A DNA stretch of 64,000 bases from Candidatus Parcubacteria bacterium. GTDB taxonomy: Bacteria > Patescibacteriota > Minisyncoccia > UBA6257 > HR35. Below are positions 20,610 through 39,234 of the stretch, in pieces; the first letter of the stretch is position 1; every line of letters begins with the position of its first letter. The DNA lies in the NCBI GenBank assembly GCA_025999335.1, contig AP024681.1:322565-386564 (forward strand). Reading direction: 5' to 3'. Made by a program: the position numbers and the translations under genes. The notes under the pieces are model-generated. The model searched no databases, was not told where the DNA came from, and was given only the letters and a program-made list of their open reading frames with translations.

Positions 20610-20681
20610 CGTCCATAGCTCAGCGGTTAGAGCACCGACCTTATAAGTCGGGGGTCCCTGGTTCAAATCCAGGTGGACGCA
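20609..20681 (+). tRNA. tRNA-Ile (anticodon TAT/UAU)
   Basis: Acceptor GCGTCCA/TGGACGC, D-stem GCTC/GAGC, a perfect 5-bp anticodon stem CCGAC/GTCGG, loop CTTATAA (anticodon TAT), and T-loop TTCAAAT. No encoded CCA. Confidence 0.7.
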
Positions 20682-20685
20682 CTTA

Positions 20686-21212: not shown

Positions 21213-23708
21213 ATGAAAAAGTATAATTTTAAGAAAATAGAAAAAAAGTGGCTATCTCTTTGGATCAAAAAACGCTTATGGAAAGTTAAGGATTCTTTAC
21301 ATCATAAAAAGAAAAAGTATATTTTAGATATGTTTCCCTATCCTTCGGGTGAAGGTTTGCATGTTGGCCATGTTGAGGGTTATACGGCTACAGATATTTT
21401 AACCAGATTTTACAGGATGAATGGTTATAATGTTTTGCATCCTATAGGATTTGATGCTTTTGGTCTGCCAGCTGAAAACTATGCCTTAAAAAAGAAAAAA
21501 AATCCCTCTTCGTTTGTGCCTAAAAATATTGCTCGTTATCGAAAACAATTATTATCTTTGGGTTTTAGTTATGATTGGGACAGAGAAATAAGCACCACCG
21601 ATCCTGAATATTACAAGTGGACACAATGGATGTTTTTACAAATGTATAAACATGGATTGGTTTATGAAAAAGAAGCGCCTATTAATTTTTGTCCTAACTG
21701 TAAAACAGGTTTAGCCGACGAAGAATCTATTGGAGGCAAATGTGAAAGATGTGAAACGCCAATAGAGGTAAGATTTTTAAAACAATGGCATATAAAAATT
21801 ACAGCTTATGCTGAACGTTTGTTAGAAGATTTAGAAGAACTTGATTGGCCCGAACATATAAAGGAAATGCAGAAAAATTGGATTGGTAAAAGCGAAGGCT
21901 ATGAAGTAAAATTTGCTTTAACTGACTATCCAGAGCCATTGAAAATTTTTACTACACGTTTAGATACAATTTTTGGAGCAACTTTTATTGTGCTATCTGT
22001 ATCTCATCCATTAATTTTTAAAATAACTAAACCTGATTATATGATGTTTATGGAAGATTATGTGCGCAATGAACTCAAAAAAGAAAAATTAGGCATTATT
22101 GACAAAGAAATTAGCGGTATTTTTACTGGTAGTTACGCGATTAATCCTATGAATGGTTTTAAAATCCCGATTTGGGTAAGTAATTATGTGCTTAGTGGTT
22201 ATGGAACAGGAGCGATTATGGGCGTACCAGCTCACGATGAACGCGATTGGAATTTTGCGAAAAAGTTTAATTTAGATATTATAAAAGTCATCAAACATTC
22301 TCTTGATGAAGAAACTAATGCCGACTTTACTTCAGTTCAGTGTTTTACTGAAGACGGCATTTTAATTAATTCTGATAAATATTCGGGATTAACTAGTAGC
22401 GAAGCGCGAGAACAAATAGGGGCTTATCTTATAAGCTTGGGCTTAGCTGAGAAGAAAATTTATTATAAATTAAGAGACTGGATTTTTTCGCGACAAAGAT
22501 ATTGGGGCGAACCCATTCCTCTTATTAGATGCAATAAATGTGGCATTGTTCCTGTGCCTGAAAAAGACTTACCTGTTGTTTTACCTAAAGTGAAAAGTTA
22601 TCAACCTACAGGCACAGGCGAATCACCTTTAAAAAATATTCATCATTGGGTTAGAGTAAAATGTCCATCGTGTCGTTCTATAGCTGAACGCGAAACTCAA
22701 ACAATGCCTCAATGGGCTGGTTCTTGTTGGTATTTTTTAGCTTATATATTAAAGAAAAAACAATCATCCAAAAAGTATAAAATAAGCTTTGATTTAAAAA
22801 AACTTAAATATTGGATGCCGGTTGATATTTATGTTGGCGGCGTCGAGCATGCTGTTTTACATTTACTATATGCTCGTTTTTGGAATAAATTTCTTTATGA
22901 CTTAAATTTAGTTCCCTGTAAAGAACCTTTTTTAAAACTGTTTAATCAAGGAATAATTTTGGGTCCTGATGGGCGTAAAATGTCTAAATCAAAAGGCAAT
23001 GTTATTAATCCTGATGATATTATAAAGCATTACGGCGCTGATACTTTACGAATGTTCGAAATGTTTTTAGGACCGTTAGAAGTTGAAAAACCTTGGTCTT
23101 CTGAAGGTATTAAAGGCATTGAAAGATTTTTGCAACGCGTTTGGAAGCTTTCCCTTTGGTTAGACAAAGTTTATAAAACAAAAAGAACTAAATTGCTTAA
23201 AAATAAAGCAAAAGAACAAGAATTATTGATTGCTTTGCATAAGCTTATTTATGAAGTAACCCAATCAATTACAAGTTTTAGATTTAATATTGCCATAGCA
23301 AAAATGATGATTTTCGAAGAAACATTAAGAAGAAATTTAGAAAATAATGTTTATATTGCCAAAGATATATTTTTAACTTTTATTAAACTACTATTTCCTT
23401 TTGCGCCTTTTATTTCTCAAGAGATTTGGCATTTATTAGGCAAAAAGAATTTTTTAGATAAAGAGAAATGGCCTCAATTCAATCCTAAATTATTAAGTAG
23501 CCAGTTGACAACCTATATTATTCAGGTTAACGGCAAAAAACGAGGTGTTTTAGAAGTTAAGGCAGACAATTTATCTGTTAATGAAGCAAAAAAATTAGTT
23601 CAATCTTTGCCTTTGTATAAAAAATATTTAGAAAACAAAACAATTAAACAAATTATCTTTGTTAAAGGTAAAGTTATTAATTTTGTTTTAGCCGATGCTA
23701 AAAGCTAA
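21213..23708 (+). CDS. leuS: leucyl-tRNA synthetase
   Basis: 831 aa. MFPYPSGEGLHVGHVEGYTATD (HIGH), VGGVEHAVLHLLYARFW and KMSKSKGN are all typical of LeuRS. Confidence 0.9.
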   Translation: MKKYNFKKIEKKWLSLWIKKRLWKVKDSLHHKKKKYILDMFPYPSGEGLHVGHVEGYTATDILTRFYRMNGYNVLHPIGFDAFGLPAENYALKKKKNPSSFVPKNIARYRKQLLSLGFSYDWDREISTTDPEYYKWTQWMFLQMYKHGLVYEKEAPINFCPNCKTGLADEESIGGKCERCETPIEVRFLKQWHIKITAYAERLLEDLEELDWPEHIKEMQKNWIGKSEGYEVKFALTDYPEPLKIFTTRLDTIFGATFIVLSVSHPLIFKITKPDYMMFMEDYVRNELKKEKLGIIDKEISGIFTGSYAINPMNGFKIPIWVSNYVLSGYGTGAIMGVPAHDERDWNFAKKFNLDIIKVIKHSLDEETNADFTSVQCFTEDGILINSDKYSGLTSSEAREQIGAYLISLGLAEKKIYYKLRDWIFSRQRYWGEPIPLIRCNKCGIVPVPEKDLPVVLPKVKSYQPTGTGESPLKNIHHWVRVKCPSCRSIAERETQTMPQWAGSCWYFLAYILKKKQSSKKYKISFDLKKLKYWMPVDIYVGGVEHAVLHLLYARFWNKFLYDLNLVPCKEPFLKLFNQGIILGPDGRKMSKSKGNVINPDDIIKHYGADTLRMFEMFLGPLEVEKPWSSEGIKGIERFLQRVWKLSLWLDKVYKTKRTKLLKNKAKEQELLIALHKLIYEVTQSITSFRFNIAIAKMMIFEETLRRNLENNVYIAKDIFLTFIKLLFPFAPFISQEIWHLLGKKNFLDKEKWPQFNPKLLSSQLTTYIIQVNGKKRGVLEVKADNLSVNEAKKLVQSLPLYKKYLENKTIKQIIFVKGKVINFVLADAKS

Positions 23709-25864: not shown

Positions 25865-26686
25865 TTATGTTACTTCTTTAAGAAATTCTTCTGCTAATTT
25901 CGGAATATCGTTGTTACTTTGATAGAAATATTTCCAAACAATAACAATGTCAGCATCATTAAATATTGCTCTTTGAACTTCCTTTAAAGTATCGCCACCG
26001 GCAATAGAAATTAAAACATCATAGTTACTTTTAATTCTTCTAATTTCATATAAAGGAATTTGCTTTTCTTTATTAAATTTTTCTTCATCAACACCGCGAT
26101 GAAGAATGATAACGCGAGGGAGTTTTTTTAATTTTCTTAAAACATTAAGAGGAAACTCAACATTCATCATATCAACCATAGAATCTATGCCTAAATCTTC
26201 GCATTTCTGAATAAAAGCATTAAGAGATTCAATTGGTGCGCAACCAAGAGCAATCACTGCATCAGCTCCAGCTTCGGCAGCAATTTCAACTTCAGTTTCA
26301 CCTCTGTCCATCATTTTTAAATCTGCTACCACATAAGGAATTATTTCTAAATTTAAAAATGATTTTTCTATTGTTTTTATTTGAAAATCACTTTGTTTAA
26401 GAATTTCTAAAATTGATGATAGTGATAAATTGAATGTTTTAGAAATTTTTTTAGAAAATATACTTGATTTTAAAGTTTGATTGACGAGATGCTGTTGATA
26501 CCATTCTTTAATCCGTTTTATTCCTTTTACCCCGTAACGTTTAATTAAGGGCGTTCCGGCTTCAATTAAAATTCTATCGCTTAGAGGTAATTGAAAAATA
26601 ATTTTTTGGGCTTCTTGAAGAGTGCTATTCAAGGCAATTTGAAGATAACGTTTTTTAGAATCAAGTTTTGAATATTTTCCTTGCAT
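25865..26686 (-). CDS. 3-hexulose-6-phosphate synthase / OMP-decarboxylase-fold family protein with an internal insertion
   Basis: LQIALNSTLQEAQKII...IEAGTPLIKRYGV and VVADLKMMDRGETEVEIAAEAGADAVIALG align to HPS/KGPDC motifs (LQVAIDL, ELGTPLIK, DMKTMDAGE...AGAD). The C-terminus ISIAGG fits the same family. Confidence 0.55.
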   Translation of the reverse strand: MQGKYSKLDSKKRYLQIALNSTLQEAQKIIFQLPLSDRILIEAGTPLIKRYGVKGIKRIKEWYQQHLVNQTLKSSIFSKKISKTFNLSLSSILEILKQSDFQIKTIEKSFLNLEIIPYVVADLKMMDRGETEVEIAAEAGADAVIALGCAPIESLNAFIQKCEDLGIDSMVDMMNVEFPLNVLRKLKKLPRVIILHRGVDEEKFNKEKQIPLYEIRRIKSNYDVLISIAGGDTLKEVQRAIFNDADIVIVWKYFYQSNNDIPKLAEEFLKEVT

Positions 26687-26742: not shown

Positions 26743-27909
26743 TTAGTTATTTTCTGTAAATTGCTTTGGTGAATTTTTATTTTTAGCAATAAATTCGCTC
26801 CATATTTCTAAAGGTGTTTCTTTAGCTTGTCGGGGATCTTTATAAAAAGCGCGATGTCTTTCATAAATTTTTTTTAAGTCATCAATGGTTAAAGCATTAA
26901 TAATTCGTCTGATATGGGGAGTAATATGGAAATAAGTTTTATACATTAAAGTATCAAAAGCTCTTGTTTTCAAAAACTCAAACTTAAACATTGTTGCTAG
27001 CAAGGTTTTTGCTAATAATTCCTGACTTACTTTTTTGCCAAATCTATATCTTCTTATTATCTCATGTTCAAAATCATGAACTACAGGAAACGCTTCAAAC
27101 TCAGCTTTAGTTTTAAAGCCAGCTTTATTTAAGTTATGCCAGATCCAAGTATGACTAGCTCCTAAAACTATTAAAATATTTATTGGTTTTTTGTTTTTAG
27201 CTTTTATTTGAAGAGAAGGATTATTTTCAATTAACTCTCTAATTACTCGAGGAAGATTTTTAAGCATAAATTCGTCTCTTTTTTGAAGACACGTTATTGC
27301 AAAATCTTTTAATATTTTGTTGTATTTTTCTAAAGCTTGTTCAAATGAATAGTTTTTTTTGATTAAAGAGTATCGAAATTTATAAAGACTCGTTATAGCT
27401 TTTTCAGTTAAGGTATACAAATTTGAATCGCGAGGTACGTCAATTAAACCAATTATTTTATTTTTTCCTAATAATCTTTTGGCGATTTGCAGTAACCAAA
27501 ATTTGCCGTTAATTTCTGGTTTTATGTTGTTTACAAGTTTTTCTAATGATTCTTTGTTTAACTTTTCATTAGGTTTAAAGTTATCTTCAATTGTTAAATT
27601 ATTATCTTTAAAAAATTGGAAATCTTCTTTAGTTAAATAACCCCGGGAGCTTATTTCTAAAAGACGCAAATGTGTTTTTTCCCAGCTAGTAAATTCAGGA
27701 AGGTAAATATCTACTTTATTTAAAAGTTTGGTGATTCTTGTTTCTGAAATTTGAGAATCATGAGATTCAAAAAAGAACATAAAATTTAAATTATAACCTC
27801 TATTTTTAAAATCTTCAGCAATTTCTTTAAGTTTTTGTTGCCAAACATCTATTTCTGATTTTTTTAAATTTTCTTTTGTTTTTTGTTTCTTTAAAGAAGG
27901 TTGTTCCAT
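26743..27909 (-). CDS. hypothetical protein, paralog 1 of a tandem pair
   Basis: 388 aa. Shares motifs GYNLNFMFFFESHD, DIYLPEF, LGASHTWIWHNL and KAEFEAFPVVH with the adjacent gene. Confidence 0.4.
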   Translation of the reverse strand: MEQPSLKKQKTKENLKKSEIDVWQQKLKEIAEDFKNRGYNLNFMFFFESHDSQISETRITKLLNKVDIYLPEFTSWEKTHLRLLEISSRGYLTKEDFQFFKDNNLTIEDNFKPNEKLNKESLEKLVNNIKPEINGKFWLLQIAKRLLGKNKIIGLIDVPRDSNLYTLTEKAITSLYKFRYSLIKKNYSFEQALEKYNKILKDFAITCLQKRDEFMLKNLPRVIRELIENNPSLQIKAKNKKPINILIVLGASHTWIWHNLNKAGFKTKAEFEAFPVVHDFEHEIIRRYRFGKKVSQELLAKTLLATMFKFEFLKTRAFDTLMYKTYFHITPHIRRIINALTIDDLKKIYERHRAFYKDPRQAKETPLEIWSEFIAKNKNSPKQFTENN

Positions 27910-27919
27910 TGAAGATATT

Positions 27920-29278
27920 TTATATTGGATGATTTATGTTTATGTATTTTGACCAAATATCTAAAGCTGTTATTTTGCCTTCTCTAATTTTTTTTAATTC
28001 TTCAAATATGTGGCGAACATCGTTTAAAGTGAGTTGGCTAATTATGGTTCTTAAATAAGAAGAAAGATTTGTTATGTAAGAAAGAGATGATAGTCTATAA
28101 AATTCATACGTAAAATACGCTTCAGCCAAACTTTTTGCTGCCAGTTCTTGTATTTTTTCACGATATTTGCTTTTTTCTGATTCGTTTAATTTACTATAAA
28201 CAAAAACATATTTTCGCAAAATTTCAGGATACAGAGAATACACAAATGGCATTTTTGTGAATTTTCTTTTCGTCGGTATGCCTGTTTCTTCTAATTTATG
28301 AAAGATTCTTGTATGGACTGCGCCTAAATTTAACAAGATTTTAATACCTTCTTTGCTCAGAGCTTTTTGCTGTAATTCAGGATGTTCGTTAAGTAAATTA
28401 TCTATAGTTTTTGGAAGTTGTTCAAGCATATAATTTTCTCTTTCTTGCATAAGCTCAGAATATTTTTCAATAGAATTGATTATATTTTCTAATAATTGAT
28501 CGAAATTTTCATCAGGCATTGGTGGGTAATTATCTGGATTAAGAGAATGAAGAGGGGAAGCCTCTAAGACCTCAGATATCTTTTTTTCCAAAGGATGATC
28601 AAGAGGAAGATCTACTATAACAATTGGTTTTTTTGTTCCTTTTATGATTTTAAAACTTTGCAACCCATATTCTAAATAACCAAAAAATTCAGATATATTT
28701 TCTATGTCTTTTTCGTTTAACTCTTTACCTATTTTTAAAATTTTACTTATTTCTTCTTTTAAATTTAAAAATTCAATTACTTGCTTGCCTTTTACTTTGT
28801 TGACAAAAAGTTCAAGAAAAGAAATTTTTGACAAGACAAGATCATCTAGGATCTCAGGTTCTTGAAAATAGGATTCTATAAGAATATCGATTATATCTTC
28901 AGGGGTTGCTTTTACTTTAATTAGAAGAGCGGAAACAGCGTTTGAAGATAATAATTTAGCAAGAGGTTCTTTCTTAAACAAATCTAAAATTTTTTCTAAG
29001 TCATTTTTTTCAAATTTACCTCGGGAGATGCCATTCATTACAATTAAGTCTATTTTTCTCCATCTTATTGATTCAGGAATATAAATATCTGCTGCTGGCA
29101 GTAATTCTTTTAAGGCGCGATAAGTAGCTGGGTCGTAATGTTCTTCAAATAAAATATTAAATTGCAGATTATACCCCTTTTTTTCGAAAAATTCACGCAG
29201 TTTGTTTAATTTCACTAATTTTTTTGTTGGTTTATTGTCTTTTTGTTTTTCACGATGGAAATATTTTGGTATGGTCAT
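27920..29278 (-). CDS. hypothetical protein, paralog 2 of a tandem pair
   Basis: 452 aa. Shares motifs GYNLQFNILFEEHYD, DIYIPES, LGAVHTRIFHKL and KRKFTKMPFVY with the adjacent gene. Confidence 0.4.
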   Translation of the reverse strand: MTIPKYFHREKQKDNKPTKKLVKLNKLREFFEKKGYNLQFNILFEEHYDPATYRALKELLPAADIYIPESIRWRKIDLIVMNGISRGKFEKNDLEKILDLFKKEPLAKLLSSNAVSALLIKVKATPEDIIDILIESYFQEPEILDDLVLSKISFLELFVNKVKGKQVIEFLNLKEEISKILKIGKELNEKDIENISEFFGYLEYGLQSFKIIKGTKKPIVIVDLPLDHPLEKKISEVLEASPLHSLNPDNYPPMPDENFDQLLENIINSIEKYSELMQERENYMLEQLPKTIDNLLNEHPELQQKALSKEGIKILLNLGAVHTRIFHKLEETGIPTKRKFTKMPFVYSLYPEILRKYVFVYSKLNESEKSKYREKIQELAAKSLAEAYFTYEFYRLSSLSYITNLSSYLRTIISQLTLNDVRHIFEELKKIREGKITALDIWSKYININHPI

Positions 29279-29646
29279 TATTGATTATTTTTATTTCAAA
29301 ATTTTAGCAGATTTTTTATAAAATAAAAAACTAATAGTTTTTTAACTATTACTTAATTGATTAACATACCAAAAATGAAGTGTTGTGGCCGTAGGTTTGA
29401 TTTTACATTATTCACAATTATAAGGCTATCAAATTTATAATTTTGCTTAAAATATTATTAGAAGTACAATAATTTCAACGAAACCTCTCTGGATGGTTTT
29501 GCTTATTTCTATTCGAGCTTGCTTTCCTCTATTGGTTAATAGTTGACAGAGGACGTTGAACGGGTCGATAAATTAATTAACTTTTTATTAAAAGCCTAGT
29601 CTTTAGCGATCATTATACTAATTACCCTCTAAAGTTTTAATAAAAG

Positions 29647-32600
29647 ATGCTCAATAGAATAAAAACAAAATTTTTTTATTTGTTTTTAATTATTATTTTA
29701 GAATTTTTATTTTTTTCAAATGTGTATGCAGTATCTCCAACAATAAGCGATGTTAAATTTAAAGGAGCTGGCGACAATAATAAAATTGTCATATTTTTTG
29801 ATCAACCTGTTACTACGGCAACAAATAGTCCTCCTGGTTCTCCCGGTTCTTATTTAGTTCCAAGTGATTTTGTTTTAGGTGGTTCTGTTGGCGGCGGTGT
29901 AACAATAAACTCTGTTGAAACAATCACGATGCCCTTTTTTAATAAAACTATTGCTATTTTATCTCTTAGTGGTAATGTTAATCCTACAGCATTAGGACAG
30001 TGGACAGTTGCTGCTTCCTCGTCTCAAATATTTAATTCAAACGGCGAACCAGTTCCAACAACAGTTATTGATTTAAATGGAAAGGGAGATAATGTCCCAC
30101 CTAATGTTTTAAATGTTTTATTGGCTCATCAAAATGAACTTTTTGTACGTTTTTCCGAAGAAATTGATCAGACATCCGGGCAAGCTACTTCTAGTTATTC
30201 TAATTTGCAAACTTCAGCTACCGGCGATACTCCTGGAATTACCGAAAGATCGGTTTTTATGGAGAGAACCTTTGCGGTAATTAGAGTAACAACTTCTACA
30301 ATTTTGGGCTGGGGCAGCGGTAATACGATTGATGTTGGTGGCATTCAAGATTTAGTTGGTAATGCAATGATAACCTCAACAATTACTATTTTGCCACCAT
30401 TGAACATTAGCGAGGTGAAGGCAGAATCAACAACCAATAATCAGGATGAATTTATAGAAATTTATAATTTTAGCGATCTTAATATCAATATAGCCACTGA
30501 TACTTTTTTCTTGCATATTAGAAATGGTGCTACTGACACGGCAAAAACTTTAACCTTAAGAAGGAACCAAATCCCTAGCTTTGGTTATTATTTAATTTGC
30601 TCGGCTTCACATTATAGCGGGACGGTTGCTTGTGATGCTACTTATGATTCTTCTGCGATTGACATTACTCCAAACTCAGCTGTTTATATTTCTGCAACTT
30701 CAAGCACTTCGACAGCGTTAAGAATTGATTTATTAGGCATGGGCAGCGCCGAGATTTTTGAAGCCGCAACCACTGCTTCATTAATGGCTGGAAAGTCATT
30801 TGAAAGAAAAGCGCACCCCAATTCTTCAACTTCAACAATGGCAATGGGCGGTAGTGATGAATTTAAAGGCAATGGTTTTGATACAAATAATAATAGCCTC
30901 GATTTTCTTTTAAGAGACATACCTCAACCGCAAAATTCCCTTTCGCCTAGAGAATTTCCGTTTGGTCAAAGTAGTCAAAGCAATGATGTTACCCCACCAC
31001 AGGTTATGGGTTCTTTCCCAAGCGGTGCTTTAGGTGAAATTGTACCTAACAATCTTCCCGAGATTGGTTTTGGTTTTAACGAACCAGTTCAGGAGGCAAG
31101 TGTTAACACTTCAACAGTAAAATTATTTAAAGGATCAGATACAAGCACTAATTATTGTCAATCAGTTGATTATGTAAATTTTGTTGATCCCATAAATCCA
31201 AGATCACCAGGGCGATGCTTTATTAGCCCTTCAAGTTTGCCTCTTGATACGACGGCTACTTGGACATTTAAAATTTTAGGCGATGCTTCAAACGCAACTT
31301 CTAGTATTGCCGTTAGGGATTTTAATAATAACGCTTTAAATCAGCCAACCTCTAACAAAGGAGATGGGACTGGAAGTTATGTTGTTCAATTTAGACCTTC
31401 ATCGGGTGGCAGTGGATTTACCTTTACTGAGCCACCAATTATGGTTTGGGGCACTTTACCGTTTGAAGGTTCTTTTAATATTCCTACAAATATTAAAAAG
31501 GTATTTATAAAGTTTTCAAACAATGTGGCGACTTCAAGCGCTAATTTAAGTTCCACACATTTTAAAGTAAGAAAAATTTCTGATTTAAGTGAGGTTCCTT
31601 TATCTTCGATTACCGCAATATCAAGCGGGCCACAATTTACTTCAGATGTTGTTGTTCTTAATCTCGGCGCCACATTATCAGCTAATACTGAATATGAAAT
31701 TGTAATTGAGAATGTTTCAAGTCAAAATGGTCTATCAAGCGTTACTAGTTTTCCTCGAAGATTTACAACCGGTGGTTCGGCAGATACTTCCGGTCCTCGA
31801 GTTATTGGAAGATTGCCAAATATTTCTAGCAATGTTCCTGTAAGCGCAATTGATATTCATATAATGGCTGATGACAGGATTGATCCAATGTCAATTTCAA
31901 CAACTACAGTTAAAGTCTTTCAAGGAAGCAATGAGATTCCTGGTAGAGTTGACTTTGATCCATTTACTGGCGAAATTCTGTTTTTTACTAATAATGTTTT
32001 TCAAGCAAGCACTACTTATACAGTTAGACTTTACGCTTCAGGCACTACGCCTTGTATTAAAAATTTATCCGATATTTGTTTGCAAGATGACGACGGCATA
32101 GCCAATAATTTTTACGAATTTAGTTTTACTACCGGCGATCCCGATACGCAAGCACCGAATATTCTTTTTGCTCATGCCGACCAGAGAAATCTTTCCCTTA
32201 CTTTTAACGAACCCATTGATCCAAGACAAGCCGTTGATTTTAATAATTACACTCTTGTTGTTAACAATGCAACCTCTGTAATTTCAAGCTTAGCTGGACA
32301 AAGGATTTTTTATGACTACATCCATAGAACGGTGGTGATTGAAAATCTTAATTTACCAGTTAGAGCCAGCTTTACAATTACTGTTAGTAATATAACCGAT
32401 CTTTCTGGTAATTTGATTGGTTCACCTAATTCTGTAAGTGGAATTGTTGAAGATATTAATATGACCGGCGGTATGGTTGGACCAGGCGCAGCCCCGCCTC
32501 CGCCACCGGGGGATGTTCCTCAAAACTTTTCAACAACTACTTTCGCTCTTGCCCCTCAACCTGATGTTTTTCCAATGTCACCATTGGCAGGAGCGACAAC

Positions 32601-35600
32601 CAATTACTTTATAGGTATTCCAATTTCAAGACAAGTTAAAAATTCTTTTGGTGGTGGCAAAATTGTTTTGACATTTCCTAGCGGTTTTGATATTAGCAAT
32701 GCTTCTTTGCGTGTTTTTACCGGTATAACCCCTGATGCTAATGGCCCTGGTCCAGGAGTTTTAACGCCAAGTTTAACCAAAGATGCTAGCGCCAGAACAA
32801 TTACTCTAACTTTAGACACAAATACAAGATGTGATAACGGCAATAATGCGCCTTGTTCAGGTGACGCTCATGATTTCTTGCAATTTGATATTTCTGGCAT
32901 AGTTAATTCTTCTATTCCTAAAGACGCTGCGAGCGGTGGTTATACTCTTGATATTAAAACTTTTGAGGGAACAACTGTTTTAGAATCTTTGACTTCGCGA
33001 CCATTTTTCATTGTTGCTGGTGGCAATAGTTCTTTAGTAGTTAATGTTTTGGCAAGTGGCGCAATATCAGGAAATGCAAAAGTCAAGCTTTTTTCGCCAA
33101 TGACCGGTCCAAGAGATGCTATAAGCACGACATTTTCTAGTAGTTCGGCGACTGCAACCTTTACTAATTTATTAGAAGGTGACTATTTTGTTAACACTGA
33201 TCCTGTTGTAAGCTTGGGGAGTAATGATTATTTAGGTGTTTTTATGCCTAATCCGATTAGGGTTCAAGGCGCAACAACAACTTTTTCTTTAACATTGCAA
33301 CCAACCACAGGTTTTGCCACTGTGACTGTCCAGGTAACCGGTCCTAGTGGTAAATTTATTGATATTTTTGCTCATAGTATGGATGGCAAGTTTTTCAAGA
33401 AAGCAACGACAACAACCGGCTCGGTTCAAAATGTAATTTTAAAACTTGCAACCGGTACCTGGTGGATCGGTGTTGGTCCGCAAATACCAGATGATCCTTT
33501 TAGTGGTCCACCGCCGGCGCCAGATTTTATAGCGCAACCACCAGTTGAAGTTAAAATTATTTCACCTTCGAATATTCAGGAAAATTCAGGCACAATTAAT
33601 GATGGTACAGTAATTTTTGCTTTATCTGCTGCTGATAAAACAATTTCCGGTAGCGTAGTTGATCATCAAGGACGAGCGGTGGTTAATGCTGATGTTTTTG
33701 CTTTTCAACCTCAAGGCGGTTTTGATACTCATACGCAGAGCGATGGTTTAGGTAAGTTTACTTTAAAGGTTTCGGCTGGTTTATATCAAGTTGGTGCTTT
33801 TAAATTTGGCTTGCCGCCAGCACCAGAAATATCTGTTGAAGTCAAAAATGATGGTACTTTATTGGTTAATGGACAATCGGCTACATCGGTAACAATAAAA
33901 ATTATAAAACCTGAAAGAACCATTAGCGGTAAAGTTTTAGATCAAAATAATAATCCAGCGCAGAATGCATCAGTTTGGGCTTATTGCGATCCGAATGTTA
34001 CCAATAATGCTTGTTTAGGTCCCGGTGATCATTCTTGGTCGCCAACTGGTCAAGACGGTTCCTACTCGCTTTTTGTTAAAAATGGTACCTGGAAAGTTGG
34101 CGCCTTTTTGCCAGGGTTTGGCGAATTAGGTTTGCAAAGCGTTACAGTTTCTAGTTCTGATATGACTAATGTTAATTTTTCTCCGCCAACAAACGTGACT
34201 TTCTTAAATATTAGCGGAACTATTTGTCGTGATACTGATGTAAGCGGTAGTGCTACTATTTGTGGTTCTGGAGATGAAAAGGTTTCGGGCGTATTTGTGA
34301 GAGCTGAAGGTGCTGCTGGTCATAATAATAGTGTTAGCGATATAAACGGTGCTTATCAATTAAGAGTACTAGCAACAACTTCTGCTTACACTCTTGAAGC
34401 TTGGGACCCAGCTATGGGCCGAATAAGACCTTTAAGTGTGATTGCTTCCTCAACCGATAGGACTGGTCAGGATTTTGTGATTCCAACACCGCGAACAATT
34501 ACAATTAATGTTAAAGACAGTAATGGTAATTTTGTTACTGTTAAAGAACTATTTGTTGATTTTGAAGATTTTACAAATAAGGTATTTAATCATATAAAGA
34601 TTAATAATGCTAATTCTGGAACATTGCAGCTTCCTGATGGTTCTTATAAAGTTAGAGCTGGTTTGCCGGCACAATTTTTAGGACATTCAGTTATTTCTTC
34701 TGATGCTGTGGGCACTGTTTTTGCAACTTCAACCGGAATATTAACTGTTGATGGCAATGAAATAATTAAAGTAACCTTGCCAGTAATGGGAGTTATTGCC
34801 GGCACTGTTAAAGATGAAGCAAATAATCCAATTGATGTTTGGGTAAGTTTTGGTAATCAAGGAACAGGAATTTTTACCGGAGTATTAGCAAATGCAAGCG
34901 GTACTTATTCTATAGTTTTACCTTTTGCTACTTATACTGTTTCGGCGTTTAAGGAAGGTTACTTTTCAACACCGGTTATTCAAGGCGTTGCTACAACCTC
35001 AACAACGACACTTAACTTAACTGTAACCCGAGCTAATTTTACAATTTCGGGAAGAGTTACAATTAATAACACTCCTGCTCCAAGGGCATTTGTTTGGGCA
35101 GAAAGAGCGGGAGGTGGATTTAGTAGCGCAGAGACCGGTTCTGACGGTAATTACACTTTAGCAGTTTCTGCTGGAACTTGGCGAGTCTTTGCAGTTAGTC
35201 ATGGTTATGCTGAAGCTGAAGCTTCATCTCCGGTCGAAGTTACTACTGCTTCGATTTCTGGAGTAAATATTAATCTAACAACAGCTATTACTTTATCTAC
35301 GGTCAAGACTTGTTCAATTATACCAGCTCAAGGAGGCAACTGCTCTTATGATCCTAATAACGATGGCATTAAAGAAATAAGCTTAACTTTTCCGGCTGGT
35401 GCTTTAGGTTCGGATTCCAGTCCAGCTATTGTAAGCATTAGCGAAACTAATGTTCTTCGTGAAAGTGAATCCATTAAACCAGCTGGAAAAGAATTTGATT
35501 TAGAAGTAGTTGATGCAAATGGAATACCAATTGATACTTTTAACTCGCCTGTTATTGTAGAAATTATTCAAAGTAAAGCTGATTTAGCTTCTGCTGGTTT

Positions 35601-36879
35601 TGACACTAAAGCTGAAGCAGATGGATTGAAATTTATTCAGCCATCAGAAACAACTAATGAATTTGATGTTAGAGTTAGCACAGTTGATTACCTTGATGCT
35701 TCAGGCAATCTTGTTTCTTCTCCGGCTGCTGATTTAAGTAATGTTAGTTTCATTAAAATTACTGCTGAAACAACTCACTTTTCTGGTGGTGGCGTAGGAG
35801 GCAGTGGCGATACAATAAGACCTTCAGCGCCAACCGGTGTTTCTGCTTCTGTTTCTGAGACAACCGTAAATCTTAGTTGGAATGCAGTAACAACAAATTT
35901 TGATGGTACGCCTATTACTGATTTAGCTGGTTATCGTATTTATAGAAGCACTTCGCAAAGTAGTGGATTTTCCTTTATTGCGAGCGTTAGTTCAACGACT
36001 ACTAGTTATTCTAATAGTGGTTTAACAAGGGGGACTACTTATTATTATAGAGTGACAGCAATAGATACAAGTAATAATGAATCTGACCCATCTTCAACTT
36101 CCAATGCGGCAACAATTTCTCAATCGGTTAGCGGTAGTGGTGGCGGTAGTGGTGGAGGCGGTGGTGGCTCAACGCCAATTCCAACCGGGACATCTACTAC
36201 GAGCACAATTCCTGTTTCAACAACAACAACCACGACAACTGCTACTACCACAGCTCCAACAACTACTCCTACAATCACTACTACAACCATTTCAATAACA
36301 CCTGAAGTTAAAAAACAAACTGGCTTACCAAAAGTTAAACCTAAAGTAAAAGCAAAAACTAAAGCTTTAGCTATTAAATTTAAGAGAAATTTGACCATAG
36401 GTTCAACCGGCGATGATGTTAAGGATTTGCAAACATTTTTAGAGAATAAAGGATTTTTGAAGATGCCTAAAGGAATTGCTAAAGGTTATTTTGGTCCATT
36501 AACGGCATCAGCTTTAAAGGCTTATCAAAAAAGTGTAGGTCTTTCTGCTACTGGTTATTTTGGGACCACGACAAGAGAGAAAATTATAGAAGAGATGGGC
36601 ATAGAAATTCCTAAAGAAAAGCCAATTAAGCCAAAAGGAAAATTTAAACGACCGCTTTGGCGTGGTTCAAAGGGCGAGGATGTTAAGTTACTTCAAGAGA
36701 TTTTAGCTAAGAAAGGATTTTACAATGGTTCAATTACAGGTTATTTTGGTTCTTTGACAGAAAAAGCAGTTCAAGAATTTCAACTTCAATATAAAATTAC
36801 CACAAAAAACAATCCTGCTTTTGGGTTTGTTGGTCCTTCGACAAGAGCTAAACTTAATGAATTATTGGATGAAGAATAA
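29647..36879 (+). CDS. giant secreted cell-surface protein (2410 aa): signal peptide, lamin-tail domain, multiple Ig-like/carboxypeptidase-regulatory-like domains, FN3, Gly/Thr-rich stalk, and two C-terminal peptidoglycan-binding domains
   Basis: N-terminal signal peptide (LFFSNVYA|VSP). An LTD-like segment with EFIEIYN (~30397-30790). Repeated ...GKVLDQNNNPAQNASVWAY/...GSVVDHQGRAVVNADVFAF CarbPepD_reg-like units. An FN3 module (PSAPTGVSASV...LSWNAV...GYRIYRS...YYYRVTAID). Low-complexity GSGGGSGGGGGGS and TTTTTTTATTTAPTTTPTITTTT stretches. Two PG_binding_1-like repeats (GDDVKDLQTFLENKGF...GYFGPLTASALKAYQ; GEDVKLLQEILAKKGF...GYFGSLTEKAVQEFQ). Confidence 0.8.
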   Translation: MLNRIKTKFFYLFLIIILEFLFFSNVYAVSPTISDVKFKGAGDNNKIVIFFDQPVTTATNSPPGSPGSYLVPSDFVLGGSVGGGVTINSVETITMPFFNKTIAILSLSGNVNPTALGQWTVAASSSQIFNSNGEPVPTTVIDLNGKGDNVPPNVLNVLLAHQNELFVRFSEEIDQTSGQATSSYSNLQTSATGDTPGITERSVFMERTFAVIRVTTSTILGWGSGNTIDVGGIQDLVGNAMITSTITILPPLNISEVKAESTTNNQDEFIEIYNFSDLNINIATDTFFLHIRNGATDTAKTLTLRRNQIPSFGYYLICSASHYSGTVACDATYDSSAIDITPNSAVYISATSSTSTALRIDLLGMGSAEIFEAATTASLMAGKSFERKAHPNSSTSTMAMGGSDEFKGNGFDTNNNSLDFLLRDIPQPQNSLSPREFPFGQSSQSNDVTPPQVMGSFPSGALGEIVPNNLPEIGFGFNEPVQEASVNTSTVKLFKGSDTSTNYCQSVDYVNFVDPINPRSPGRCFISPSSLPLDTTATWTFKILGDASNATSSIAVRDFNNNALNQPTSNKGDGTGSYVVQFRPSSGGSGFTFTEPPIMVWGTLPFEGSFNIPTNIKKVFIKFSNNVATSSANLSSTHFKVRKISDLSEVPLSSITAISSGPQFTSDVVVLNLGATLSANTEYEIVIENVSSQNGLSSVTSFPRRFTTGGSADTSGPRVIGRLPNISSNVPVSAIDIHIMADDRIDPMSISTTTVKVFQGSNEIPGRVDFDPFTGEILFFTNNVFQASTTYTVRLYASGTTPCIKNLSDICLQDDDGIANNFYEFSFTTGDPDTQAPNILFAHADQRNLSLTFNEPIDPRQAVDFNNYTLVVNNATSVISSLAGQRIFYDYIHRTVVIENLNLPVRASFTITVSNITDLSGNLIGSPNSVSGIVEDINMTGGMVGPGAAPPPPPGDVPQNFSTTTFALAPQPDVFPMSPLAGATTNYFIGIPISRQVKNSFGGGKIVLTFPSGFDISNASLRVFTGITPDANGPGPGVLTPSLTKDASARTITLTLDTNTRCDNGNNAPCSGDAHDFLQFDISGIVNSSIPKDAASGGYTLDIKTFEGTTVLESLTSRPFFIVAGGNSSLVVNVLASGAISGNAKVKLFSPMTGPRDAISTTFSSSSATATFTNLLEGDYFVNTDPVVSLGSNDYLGVFMPNPIRVQGATTTFSLTLQPTTGFATVTVQVTGPSGKFIDIFAHSMDGKFFKKATTTTGSVQNVILKLATGTWWIGVGPQIPDDPFSGPPPAPDFIAQPPVEVKIISPSNIQENSGTINDGTVIFALSAADKTISGSVVDHQGRAVVNADVFAFQPQGGFDTHTQSDGLGKFTLKVSAGLYQVGAFKFGLPPAPEISVEVKNDGTLLVNGQSATSVTIKIIKPERTISGKVLDQNNNPAQNASVWAYCDPNVTNNACLGPGDHSWSPTGQDGSYSLFVKNGTWKVGAFLPGFGELGLQSVTVSSSDMTNVNFSPPTNVTFLNISGTICRDTDVSGSATICGSGDEKVSGVFVRAEGAAGHNNSVSDINGAYQLRVLATTSAYTLEAWDPAMGRIRPLSVIASSTDRTGQDFVIPTPRTITINVKDSNGNFVTVKELFVDFEDFTNKVFNHIKINNANSGTLQLPDGSYKVRAGLPAQFLGHSVISSDAVGTVFATSTGILTVDGNEIIKVTLPVMGVIAGTVKDEANNPIDVWVSFGNQGTGIFTGVLANASGTYSIVLPFATYTVSAFKEGYFSTPVIQGVATTSTTTLNLTVTRANFTISGRVTINNTPAPRAFVWAERAGGGFSSAETGSDGNYTLAVSAGTWRVFAVSHGYAEAEASSPVEVTTASISGVNINLTTAITLSTVKTCSIIPAQGGNCSYDPNNDGIKEISLTFPAGALGSDSSPAIVSISETNVLRESESIKPAGKEFDLEVVDANGIPIDTFNSPVIVEIIQSKADLASAGFDTKAEADGLKFIQPSETTNEFDVRVSTVDYLDASGNLVSSPAADLSNVSFIKITAETTHFSGGGVGGSGDTIRPSAPTGVSASVSETTVNLSWNAVTTNFDGTPITDLAGYRIYRSTSQSSGFSFIASVSSTTTSYSNSGLTRGTTYYYRVTAIDTSNNESDPSSTSNAATISQSVSGSGGGSGGGGGGSTPIPTGTSTTSTIPVSTTTTTTTATTTAPTTTPTITTTTISITPEVKKQTGLPKVKPKVKAKTKALAIKFKRNLTIGSTGDDVKDLQTFLENKGFLKMPKGIAKGYFGPLTASALKAYQKSVGLSATGYFGTTTREKIIEEMGIEIPKEKPIKPKGKFKRPLWRGSKGEDVKLLQEILAKKGFYNGSITGYFGSLTEKAVQEFQLQYKITTKNNPAFGFVGPSTRAKLNELLDEE

Positions 36880-37250: not shown

Positions 37251-37973
37251 TTATTTAAAATTACCACAAGCAAAACCTAAAGTGATAAGAGCATCGGTAT
37301 TTTGTAATTTTAGTAATTTTTTGATTTCATCATCATGCAAAGCTCCGGAGATAACACCACCAATATTTTCGTTTGCTAAGCGTAAGCCGAGGCTTTGCGC
37401 ATAAAGTCCGGTTTCAATAAGGATGAATCTACCACCGCGTTCACCGTATTTATTAACAGTTCTTTCAGGAATAGCGACAAAAATAAAAAATACCGCGGGT
37501 TCTCCTTCTAATTCTAAGCCAAAGAATTCTTTAATTTCATTCCATTCAGGGCAATTTGTTACTATTGAGAGAGAATGATTGTCGGCATTATAGTAGACGA
37601 TTTTTTTGTTTAATTTGCTTTTAACATTAAATAAACAAGCAAAAACTTCAATAGGATATTTGCCGCCAGCTGATGGTAATAATCTTTTTGTTGAATTTTG
37701 TTGAGCAAAAGCATAAAACAATGACCCTAATTGTTTTTCTGAGATAGGCACGCTAGAAAATTCTCTAGTACTTTTTCTTTGAGACATTATATAGGCTAGA
37801 CGATCTTTAGGCTTTTTTAAAAATAAATCTTCACTAGGGTAAAAAATTTGGGGTATGGTTTTAAAAGTTCGAGCATCTTCTATGAGATTTTTGATTAATT
37901 TTAAAGATGTTTGCTTGTTTAGTTTAGAATTTTCCCAGAACAACCTAAAAAGATCTGCTTTGTTTTCGTCCAT
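37251..37973 (-). CDS. SagB/McbC-type FMN-dependent dehydrogenase (azoline oxidase) of a TOMM-like cluster
   Basis: 240 aa nitroreductase-fold protein with the SagB-type motif PSAGGKYPIEVF and an RKSTREF segment. Adjacent to the YcaO gene on the same strand. Confidence 0.65.
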   Translation of the reverse strand: MDENKADLFRLFWENSKLNKQTSLKLIKNLIEDARTFKTIPQIFYPSEDLFLKKPKDRLAYIMSQRKSTREFSSVPISEKQLGSLFYAFAQQNSTKRLLPSAGGKYPIEVFACLFNVKSKLNKKIVYYNADNHSLSIVTNCPEWNEIKEFFGLELEGEPAVFFIFVAIPERTVNKYGERGGRFILIETGLYAQSLGLRLANENIGGVISGALHDDEIKKLLKLQNTDALITLGFACGNFK

Positions 37974-37977
37974 TGTT

Positions 37978-39234
37978 TTATCCTAAAGGATGAGGCAATT
38001 TATTTGGAAATTCGACTTGATTAACTAAATCAGGATATCGCCATTTTACATCTGCTGTCCGTCCACCAAGAAAAGGAGCTCGTTCATCGCCGTGAAGCAA
38101 AGATAGCTCTGGAGATAAAACTCTTATTACATTTAAACCAGTTTCACGCACTTCGTCAATGGTTATATCACGATAAAATAGTCTGATGTTTTGTTCTTTT
38201 AATTGTTTAATTAAATTTGTTAAAATTTCAATTGTGTTAGTAGCTTTATTTTCTTGGGCTTGTTTTTGATATGAAAATCGTTTTTTTAACAAGGGAGTTT
38301 TGTGCCATAAGTGTGGATAAAGAGTATAGTAAACGGCATGTTTGTCAAAATCAACAATATCTTCAATTTTATTAAGTTTTAAATCTCTATTATAAAGGCT
38401 ATAAAATCCAGCAAAAATTACCCCTTGAATCCATTCAAGATATGCTTTTTCAATGGCTTCTTCATAAGTTGGTCGACAAGCAACGCCCATTGAAATTCGT
38501 TTTTTATTTCTTAGCGGCAAATGACCACAAACAATAACAACAGGATGAGGATTCCATTGTTGAGTTATATCAAAACAGAAAATTTCGCCACCCTTTTTTA
38601 AAACAGGATTTGTATATTTTTCATCAAGCTTGATTTCTCTGCCGCCTAAGGAATTAAGCCAATAAACAGTTAAGGCATCTCTTTCTAAGACTTCTTGAAT
38701 CCCCAACAATAAAGCATTGAACTTATTAAAATGAGCCGCTAACCCAGTTGACGTTGAGGGAAGAAAAGCTTTGTTAGATTTTGTGCCTAACCCAATTAAT
38801 TCTTGCGGGACCCAAAATTTTTCGTTATTATACACCGAATAAACTTCGCCAAAAAATGCTTCTTTAATATCAAATTTTTCCCAAGGAAAATTTTTGTTAT
38901 TATACTGTTTTTCTAAAAAAAGAGAAAATTGATCATGGGTAATTATTTTTTCATTTTTTATTTCTGATAATTTTTTAACTGGAAAATTTATTAAAAATGC
39001 CGAATATCTTTCCATAGCTTCAGCAATAGCACTAATAGTTGCTATTTGTTCATCTTGGTTGATCCCACCACTGGCTGATCTCCATGCTTCAATGGAATTT
39101 TCAGGTACAGAAACATTGGCTATATTTTCAATATCTGCAAAAGTGTTTTCAACTTTTTGAGGCGGAAGAACAATCCCGCAACGAAAACTTGTCGCTTTTT
39201 GTAAAACATATTGATTTAAAGTTTTTTTAAACAT
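37978..39234 (-). CDS. YcaO-domain cyclodehydratase
   Basis: 418 aa. YcaO ATP-binding signature ...GGINQDEQIATISAIAEAMERYSA. Pro-rich C-terminus ...FPNKLPHPLG, as in azoline-forming YcaOs. Separated from the SagB-like gene by 4 nt. Confidence 0.75.
   Translation of the reverse strand: MFKKTLNQYVLQKATSFRCGIVLPPQKVENTFADIENIANVSVPENSIEAWRSASGGINQDEQIATISAIAEAMERYSAFLINFPVKKLSEIKNEKIITHDQFSLFLEKQYNNKNFPWEKFDIKEAFFGEVYSVYNNEKFWVPQELIGLGTKSNKAFLPSTSTGLAAHFNKFNALLLGIQEVLERDALTVYWLNSLGGREIKLDEKYTNPVLKKGGEIFCFDITQQWNPHPVVIVCGHLPLRNKKRISMGVACRPTYEEAIEKAYLEWIQGVIFAGFYSLYNRDLKLNKIEDIVDFDKHAVYYTLYPHLWHKTPLLKKRFSYQKQAQENKATNTIEILTNLIKQLKEQNIRLFYRDITIDEVRETGLNVIRVLSPELSLLHGDERAPFLGGRTADVKWRYPDLVNQVEFPNKLPHPLG

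Follow-up and report, generated by a model that had tools for sequence, protein, structure and literature searches.

A tandem pair of hypothetical Parcubacteria proteins, most likely from a remote cytoplasmic branch of the TIKI/TraB/Ere/ChaN hydrolase superfamily

Here we consider a 64,000-nucleotide stretch of DNA from a Candidatus Parcubacteria bacterium (contig AP024681.1, positions 322,565 to 386,564; hereafter the window) and, within it, two adjacent minus-strand genes whose products we call W388 (388 aa; 26743–27909) and W452 (452 aa; 27920–29278). By analogy with characterized enzymes, we think that the two are, on balance, probably cytoplasmic His/Glu hydrolases, either esterases or peptidases, of the TIKI/TraB/Ere/ChaN type, with water activation as in Ere enzymes. 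The family to which they belong is most likely a remote cytoplasmic branch of the superfamily that joins TIKI/TraB/GumN proteins with erythromycin esterases and ChaN-like proteins. We infer this homology from three partly independent lines of evidence, namely the fold, the topological placement of conserved residues and a collinear profile similarity, no single one of which is decisive. Since no curated hidden Markov model (HMM) detects the family, we do not file it under PF01963, PF05139 or PF04187; it is new to curated databases and is best described as a new family inside a known hydrolase superfamily.

A sequence-only reading of this DNA had described an old tandem duplication of a family that it could not place, and this description holds up well. 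The two open reading frames lie on the minus strand at the coordinates given above, and an exact-sequence look-up identifies their products as BCX15462.1 ('hypothetical protein KatS3mg097_354', W388) and BCX15463.1 ('hypothetical protein KatS3mg097_355', W452) from a 680,436-bp contig of a Candidatus Parcubacteria bacterium metagenome-assembled genome (MAG). The same locus is found in GCA_041640215.1 and in three Logan assemblies, and the window is AT-rich bacterial DNA (~29% GC) with tRNAs and a bacterial RNase P RNA. The two proteins align collinearly from residue ~25 to the C-terminus with 29% identity (BLASTP, E=8e-39); they are true paralogues, chance resemblance being excluded, and both this divergence and a neighbour-joining tree agree with an old duplication. 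W452 carries ~65 extra residues, which form helical insertions between motifs 2 and 3 (see below). Only 10 nt separate the TAA stop codon of W452 from the ATG of W388 (27910–27919, minus strand, read directly from the sequence), so the two genes are almost certainly co-transcribed.

Conserved residues, predicted fold and superfamily placement

Five motifs define the family, and we counted their residues over 152 aligned domain copies, using W388 numbering. H50, E72, D157, R211 and G250 are each found in 151 of the 152 copies, an acidic residue at position 212 ([E/D]212) and H253 in 148 each, and D67 in 147; K151 (139 copies), T254 (138) and W76 (137) follow. All five motifs are encoded on the minus strand. 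The first, FMFFFESH (E48 and H50; 27760–27783), closes strand b1, and its equivalent in W452 is E45-x-H47 (29138–29146); the second, DIYLPE (D67 and E72; 27694–27711), closes b2 and reads DIYIPE in W452 (E69; 29072–29089). Motif 3, KIIGLIDVP (K151 and D157; 27433–27459), lies on b3 and corresponds to KPIVIVDLP in W452 (K217/D223; 28604–28630), while motif 4, QKRDEFML (R211; 27262–27285), is part of a long helix spanning residues 189–228 and corresponds to QERENYML (R280; 28424–28447). Finally, motif 5, LGASHT (G250 and H253; 27148–27165), stands at the end of b4 and appears as LGAVHT in W452 (G319/H322; 28310–28327). W452 thus keeps the full invariant set and, as both window copies do so, both are probably active, to judge from their residues.

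Most of the motifs listed in the sequence-only reading proved to be family-wide. GYNL[NQ]F, DIY[LI]PE, LGA[SV]HT.I.H.L and K.[EK]F...P.V[HY] are present as described, whereas FE[ES]H.D needs a correction, the Asp being off by one in W388 (FESHDS, compared with FEEHYD in W452). That reading also took the conserved His, Glu and Asp residues as a sign of a metal-dependent enzyme. The first half of this suggestion stands, in that these residues are near-invariant and look like an enzyme active site; the second half is uncertain, as the superfamily holds both the metal-dependent Tiki proteins and the metal-independent EreC and RRSP (PMC7979712, PMC6254334). Might the family instead be a non-catalytic member of the fold, serving as a ligand-binding or scaffold protein in the manner of ChaN, which binds haem, or of the inactive C1/C2 domains of PMT? 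Despite these precedents, we regard this as very unlikely. PMT lacks the 2His/2Glu set, whereas in the CPR (Candidate Phyla Radiation) family described here each of the five residues (His, Glu, Asp, Arg and His) persists in 148 or more of the 152 copies at ~30% overall identity, as is typical of catalytic residues, and the family has no ChaN-like lipoprotein or export signal.

The fold points in the same direction. When given only the two paralogues, AlphaFold2 returned a mediocre model (predicted local distance difference test score, pLDDT, 70), but with a 76-sequence alignment the W388 model reached a pLDDT of 91.1 and a predicted template-modelling score (pTM) of 0.90. The predicted core is a five-stranded parallel beta-sheet (b1, 40–48; b2, 68–71; b3, ~152–154; b4, 242–250; b5, 266–271), accompanied by a helical insertion (78–146), the long helix bearing R211 (189–228) and a C-terminal helical region (280–376). 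A mainly parallel central sheet flanked by helices is what is expected of the TIKI/TraB/Ere/ChaN-like superfamily, and the model resembles its solved members. In a structural comparison, the scores were 8.1 for EreC (6xcq; 172 residues aligned), 7.9 for a 'Succinoglycan biosynthesis protein' (2rad; 159 residues), 7.8 for a TraB-family protein (8bqs_DQ; 151 residues), 7.7 for ChaN (2g5g; 166 residues, 16% identity), 7.2 for a second 'Succinoglycan biosynthesis protein' (2qgm; 155 residues), 7.2 for HopBA1 (5t09; 144 residues) and 6.7 for RRSP (5w6l; 168 residues). Among Foldseek matches, none of them significant, ChaN (2g5g) ranked first by probability (0.87) and by template-modelling score, with HopBA1 also listed.

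The placement of the conserved residues on this predicted fold forms the second line of evidence. EreC, BcR135/136, ChaN, HopBA1, PMT and RRSP share one fold, in which a catalytic ExH...E...(R)...H set is found at the ends of the core strands (PMC6254334, PMC7979712); in RRSP, this '2His/2Glu' set includes E3900-x-H3902, E3930 and H4030 (PMC6254334). EreC relies on E47, H50, E78, R261 and H289 and requires no metal: water is activated by H50 as general base and held in position by E78 together with H289, while R261 stabilizes the oxyanion and E47 orients H50 (PMC7979712). W388 offers E48, H50, E72, R211 and H253, which agree with the EreC set in residue type, order and approximate position as judged along the chain. 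In the W388 model, E48-x-H50 caps strand b1 and E72 caps b2, while R211 sits on the long helix and H253 follows shortly after b4. Order and topology are those of EreC, and the strand-end placement by which the active sites of RRSP, BcR135 and EreC are defined is seen in the model as well.

The third line of evidence comes from profiles. For comparison with TraB/GumN proteins, we used an alignment of 13 sequences comprising Escherichia coli YbaP, enterobacterial orthologues and proteins from Proteus, Rhizobium, Aeromonas, Aureibacter, Lysinibacillus, Stenotrophomonas and Sphingomonas, the diverse members (24–48% identity to YbaP) having been collected from plasmids by tblastn. Five TraB/GumN motifs match those of the CPR family one-for-one, in the same order and at the same secondary-structure positions: G[ST]xH with F[YF][SGAE]xH (motif 1), ADAxhVE with ADIYIPE (motif 2), KP[VI]xx[LM]E with KPIxx[IV]D (motif 3), R[ND]xx[WM] with R[ED]x[YF][MI], which contains R211 (motif 4), and VG[AST]xHL with LG[AS]xHT (motif 5). 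The sequence-only reading had called for profile-profile searches alongside structure prediction, and unsupervised hhalign of the family against the TraB/GumN alignment gave a score of 25.6 (P=0.015); in the extended form of the alignment, the five anchors all line up. R211 is paired with the TraB/GumN Arg, so that the conserved Arg preceding the second His, which is expected in the superfamily, is recovered. For calibration, the columns of the TraB alignment were shuffled 150 times against each of two family alignments. The shuffled scores were 14.0 ± 2.2 (maximum 21.0) with the 76-sequence alignment and 13.7 ± 2.5 (maximum 23.6) with the 152-sequence alignment; the observed scores of 25.45 and 25.86 exceed all 150 shuffles in each case (z ~5; Gumbel estimate, p ~1e-3), and the reversed alignment scored 15–16. 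Global-mode hhalign was also tried and rejected, its output being meaningless.

The main rival to this placement is that the likeness is generic, i.e. that a three-layer alpha/beta sandwich has been found with no homology to TIKI/TraB/Ere/ChaN, and that the family is a new enzyme class whose H/E/D/R/H centre carries out some other chemistry, with phosphorylated sugars or nucleotides as possible substrates, or else within a tetrapyrrole-methylase-like fold. The only hint in this direction is the presence of several sugar-phosphate enzymes among the immediate neighbours. Structural alignments to methylases are shorter (119–137 residues) than those to TIKI-type proteins (144–172), and strand 1 has no glycine-rich S-adenosylmethionine (SAM) loop, its sequence being F-[YF]-[SGAE]-x-H. 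Furthermore, the match of the five motifs to TraB/GumN in order and position, the profile score above every shuffle, and a residue set that mirrors the experimentally defined catalytic set of EreC all argue against it, and we consider this alternative unlikely.

Several observations weigh against our own placement as well. PF01963, PF04187, PF05139 and NCBIfam detect 0 of 76 members even at E<=10, and the 76-sequence profile finds nothing meaningful among Protein Data Bank (PDB) sequences: no superfamily member, and no Ere or BcR chain. Foldseek of the model against the PDB returns nothing at E<=1e-3. The probability that hhalign itself assigns to the TraB/GumN match is only 3%, and comparisons with single YbaP, or with close YbaP orthologues (effective sequence number, Neff, ~2), are insignificant. 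The first Glu of the catalytic set (E48) is found in only 9 of the 152 copies, both window proteins included, with Ser, Gly or Ala in most members. In addition, the match of the five residues to the EreC/ChaN active site is one of chain order and topology in a predicted model, and gene neighbours give no consistent functional clue.

If the placement is right, what chemistry would follow? By analogy with EreC, H50 at the end of strand 1 would deprotonate a water molecule held by E72 (end of strand 2) and H253 (after strand 4), and the resulting hydroxide would attack an ester or peptide carbonyl, with R211 stabilizing the oxyanion as R261 does in EreC (cf. R-[ND]-x-x-[WM] of TraB). E48, which is specific to the sub-clade of the window proteins, would orient H50 in the way that E47 does in EreC. 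D157 on strand 3, a family-specific invariant, may fill the place of the conserved TraB/GumN Glu. These predicted roles of H50, E72, R211 and H253, like the hydrolase chemistry as a whole, are borrowed from the characterized relative.

Comparison with the closest known systems shows how far the family stands from each of them. EreA/EreB/EreC and BcR135/BcR136 (Erythro_esteras; 6XCQ, 3B55, 2QGM) have no sequence-level or Pfam match to the CPR family, although the CPR family looks cytoplasmic, as the Ere enzymes are. The first Glu is at –2 from the His in W388 and at –3 in EreC (Ser, Gly or Ala replacing it in most of the CPR family), D157 is an additional invariant Asp in the CPR family, and no link to macrolide resistance is seen. 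As for TraB/PrgY/GumN (PF01963; YbaP, Enterococcus PrgY/TraB, human TRABD, Tiki1/2), the Pfam model is carried by YbaP, a genuine member, but does not detect the CPR family. TraB, PrgY, Tiki and GumN proteins are typically membrane-anchored, periplasmic or extracellular (PMC12329661), whereas the CPR proteins have neither a signal peptide nor a transmembrane segment; moreover, CPR motif 3 ends in Asp rather than Glu, and the CPR family adds a ~100-residue C-terminal helical region and a helix between motifs 4 and 5. ChaN (Campylobacter jejuni, 2G5G; Cofac_haem_bdg, PF04187) is an exported haem-binding lipoprotein with no shown hydrolase activity, while the CPR family lacks an export signal or PF04187 match and conserves a full catalytic-type residue set. 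RRSP (the MARTX Ras/Rap1-specific endopeptidase, 5W6L) and HopBA1 (5T09) are domains of secreted toxins or effectors and have additional lobes for targeting; nothing indicates that the CPR proteins are secreted or toxic, and their genes sit among housekeeping genes.

Extent, duplication and evolutionary rate of the family

CPR (Patescibacteria) genomes are tiny, and a large share of their genes is unannotated. An exhaustive HMMER search with a two-sequence profile retrieved 658 cluster representatives with E<=1e-3, of which 353 reach E<=1e-10. Most are 320–400 aa long, and every named member is a 'hypothetical protein', from Ca. Parcubacteria, Ca. Levybacteria, the 'Patescibacteria group' or, in one case, a short contig binned as Bacteroidetes. 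The family is thus widespread across Patescibacteria (Parcubacteria, Microgenomates and others) and, to judge from labelled members, which are almost all Patescibacteria, it is apparently largely restricted to CPR bacteria.

The earlier statement that the family could not be placed is borne out by the curated libraries: W388 and W452 have no match in Pfam-A, NCBIfam, PADLOC or PDB sequences and a single stray match in PHROGs (E=0.002), and a search of 76 members against Pfam reveals no recurring family even at E<=10. Membership of a well-characterized housekeeping family, which would have undone that reading, was not found; the family is new and only remotely kin to a known superfamily. An origin in a defence system or phage was considered and rejected on the same PADLOC and PHROGs results. 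Word-indexed searches of 5.8 billion proteins, whether the query was W388 alone or the 76-sequence profile, yielded hardly anything beyond self-matches, as members are too divergent and AT-rich for 5-mer-seeded searches to see the family, and W388 as a single query against genome contigs found no related loci. Homologue loci were therefore gathered through the subset of members that share DIY[IV]PExxGW. Two long members, P0126 (573 aa) and P0094 (549 aa), carry N-terminal extensions of ~230 residues with no significant Pfam match (a sub-threshold Ribosomal_L12-C-like match being all that is seen in P0126); these may be accessory domains and could hint at substrate.

Duplication is not peculiar to the window. 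Tandem family copies occur at two other loci, L005 (397 and 383 aa) and L119 (352 and 340 aa), two copies with one gene between them occur at L116, and two proteins, P0038 (705 aa) and P0112 (687 aa, MEK7580192.1), each fuse two complete domains. The fusions are not read-through artefacts, each being an uninterrupted open reading frame under code 11 with catalytic residues kept in each half. Just before the P0112 fusion, we note a small gene for an 85-aa GIY-YIG nuclease-domain protein (L130:1841–2098) and a SpoIID-like gene, which is a single observation. In the neighbour-joining tree, W388 groups with P0003 (38% identity), and the other copy of locus L005, P0005, falls in the same sub-clade; W452 lies outside this sub-clade, and the fusion halves lie elsewhere. 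From these positions, duplication and fusion are recurrent. W452 may be a fast-diverged orthologue of P0005, with which it shares gene order, or an independent duplicate. That two-copy forms keep recurring suggests that the domains may work in twos, and it is plausible that W388 and W452 cooperate, either in a hetero-oligomer or as sub-functionalized partners.

The family also evolves quickly. Across five syntenic genomes, it is the fastest-evolving gene of its neighbourhood, with a median identity of 32% for the same genome pairs in which RecR stands at 76%, YbaB at 75%, Prs at 62%, DnaX and CysRS at 58% each, and u182, a neighbouring gene, at 42%; its catalytic residues are fixed all the same. 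This pattern agrees with an enzyme that keeps pace with a rapidly changing substrate, possibly a peptide. Together with recurrent duplication and fusion, very fast evolution around a fixed core suggests a non-trivial biological role. The annotation itself is a useful advance: at least 658 'hypothetical' protein clusters gain a context in both structure and mechanism, the family is a candidate for a new Pfam entry, and a predicted active site (H50, E72, D157, R211, H253) can be offered. Wider impact depends on the substrate proving interesting.

Cell location, the giant gene and other neighbours

Where in the cell would such proteins act? W388 and W452 have no signal peptide or transmembrane segment (maximum 19-aa Kyte–Doolittle values of 0.88 and 1.13), and a strongly hydrophobic window (>1.6) is found in only 6 of the 152 members, where it is mostly a buried core strand. 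With neither export signal nor transmembrane segment, the family looks cytoplasmic. In the TraB/PrgY/GumN family, a membrane, periplasmic or extracellular location is typical.

Location bears directly on the function that the sequence-only reading had proposed, namely that the pair takes part in surface-protein modification or host interaction by way of a neighbouring giant gene. The product of this gene (29647–36879, plus strand) is a plausible surface protein: it is 2410 aa long and has a hydrophobic leader at its N-terminus, CarboxypepD_reg repeats, fn3 and, at its C-terminus, a pair of PG_binding_1 domains. Broadly stated, the pair would modify, process or export the giant protein, or would mediate host interaction. 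The two are physically adjacent, their divergent spacer could hold a shared regulatory region, the giant protein has the domains of a surface protein, and the relatives Tiki and PrgY process extracellular proteins or peptides (PMC6254334, PMC12329661). Nevertheless, the genes lie on opposite strands, the paralogues carry no signals for export, and among ~31 non-redundant homologue loci, where co-occurrence had been suggested as a check, there is no giant or adhesin-like neighbour. Additionally, four strain-level assemblies show no difference in the pair (100% identity), whereas the giant gene gathers 14–27 substitutions along with frameshifts; the pair being invariant where the giant gene varies, the two evolve independently. 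The family is absent as well from related CPR loci around LeuRS: in LeuRS-centred synteny, 0 of 80 loci carry it, these loci coming from other bacteria that include CPR MAGs at <=50% LeuRS identity. We therefore judge a functional coupling to the giant gene to be extremely unlikely, and the role proposed through it is not supported; the adjacency is an accident of genome layout, and a guilt-by-association link to a surface protein is removed.

The spacer itself (29279–29646) had been read as a 367-nt non-coding leader between the pair and the giant gene; it is 368 nt long and is a divergent region shared by the pair on the minus strand and the giant gene on the plus strand. Promoter-like sites are no commoner in it than in shuffled sequences, and a structured RNA or leader was considered and rejected, with no Rfam match at E<=1 and folding z values of –0.19 and –0.08. 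As to the variability of the giant gene, the 14–27 substitutions per assembly over 13 kb are almost all within it, clustered at 35235–36185, and flanking genes are identical. The window and assembly L002 carry an intact copy of the giant gene, and frameshifts split it in L001 (T deleted at 30485, G inserted at 36034) and L003 (G inserted at 36034). Diversifying selection, recombination or pseudogenization could each be responsible.

On its other side, the pair is followed after 56 nt by a co-directional gene (25865–26686, minus strand) for a 273-aa protein like 3-hexulose-6-phosphate synthase (HPS; OMPdecase/HUMPS family), an adjacency that is not kept in other genomes. The best NCBIfam match of this gene is the HPS half of bifunctional Fae/Hps, with a score of 176.6 that is under the curated cut-off of 274, so its exact activity is uncertain. 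The gene may be served by an extended –10 promoter-like site of its own within the gap that separates it from the pair.

Elsewhere, the recurrent neighbours in the ~31 loci are prs and recR (7 loci each) and histidine phosphatases (4), whereas those that appear once include TIM, GalT, MnmA, AlaRS, a sortase, a radical-SAM protein and an ABC ATPase. The gene string with prs and recR reads dnaX-ybaB-prs-recR-FAMILY-(trpR-like)-u182-cysS, with a recR-to-family gap of –4 to +2 nt in six loci. The metagenome contigs L096–L099, L105, L119 and L120 represent a single lineage that is Parcubacteria-like; in them, a conserved dnaX-ybaB-(prs)-recR cluster is extended by the family gene, after which come a TrpR-like gene, an unannotated gene of ~185 aa and cysS. 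In L114, the family gene comes directly after dnaX. We considered the recR/dnaX linkage as a functional clue and downgraded it: the loci that show it belong to a single narrow lineage (RecR 72–82% identical) and represent synteny, not independent co-occurrence. The linkage is probably one of lineage, a tie to DNA metabolism being the less likely reading. None of recR, dnaX, prs and cysS is found in the window.

A further possibility concerns genes 8 kb away. In CPR genomes, Tiki/TraB-family peptidases are co-encoded in graspetide loci, graspetides being ribosomally synthesized and post-translationally modified peptides (RiPPs), and have been proposed as leader or maturation peptidases (PMC8939145). 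Could W388 and W452 likewise be peptide-processing hydrolases, i.e. leader or maturation peptidases or immunity enzymes, for RiPPs or pheromone-like peptides, linked to the YcaO (37978–39234) and nitroreductase-fold, SagB-like (37251–37973) genes that lie on the same strand as the pair? Besides the CPR precedent, fast evolution, a fixed active site and recurrent duplication are all expected of enzymes that track diversifying peptides, and a radical-SAM gene stands directly upstream of the family gene in locus L104. On the other hand, a 7.2-kb giant gene and a tRNA, both on the other strand, separate the YcaO genes from the pair, and among the ~31 loci RiPP enzymes, be they YcaO, ATP-grasp or others, do not recur as neighbours. 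We accordingly hold this reading to be rather improbable. Much the same doubt attaches to a bolder version, in which the family would be a CPR-specific, fast-evolving cytoplasmic peptidase or esterase, working as an obligate two-domain unit (tandem or fused) on diversifying peptides such as RiPP precursors or pheromone-like signals, much as PrgY/TraB and Tiki act on peptide or protein ligands, and linked here to the YcaO/SagB-like genes. If true, however, it would make the family part of the molecular dialogue of episymbiotic CPR bacteria with their hosts or competitors.

Other features of the window

The YcaO cyclodehydratase (418 aa) lies directly upstream of the SagB-like gene (240 aa), the two together spanning 37251–39234 on the minus strand. 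YcaO with a SagB-like nitroreductase is the hallmark pair of azoline-type RiPP biosynthesis and is unexpected in a CPR genome of 680 kb. Three co-directional open reading frames (275, 224 and 240 aa; 39362–41747, minus strand) precede YcaO and have no Pfam match.

An Rfam match to 'Plastid-ycf2 5UTR RNA' (20609–20682, minus strand; 66.0, compared with a gathering threshold of 65.7) is exactly antisense to a tRNA (20609–20681, plus strand) and is almost certainly an artefact of a model that matches tRNA-like sequence. On either side of it are two class-I aminoacyl-tRNA synthetase genes 2 kb apart (17345–19465 and 21213–23708, both plus strand), which both match a LeuRS editing-domain model, the 706-aa product weakly; a PrsW-type intramembrane protease gene (19478–20269) and a small HSP20 gene lie between them. 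Lastly, minimal as this CPR genome is, it has a SET-domain gene of the protein lysine methyltransferase type (182 aa; 15533–16081, minus strand), which adjoins a gene for an HD-domain protein (14890–15462).

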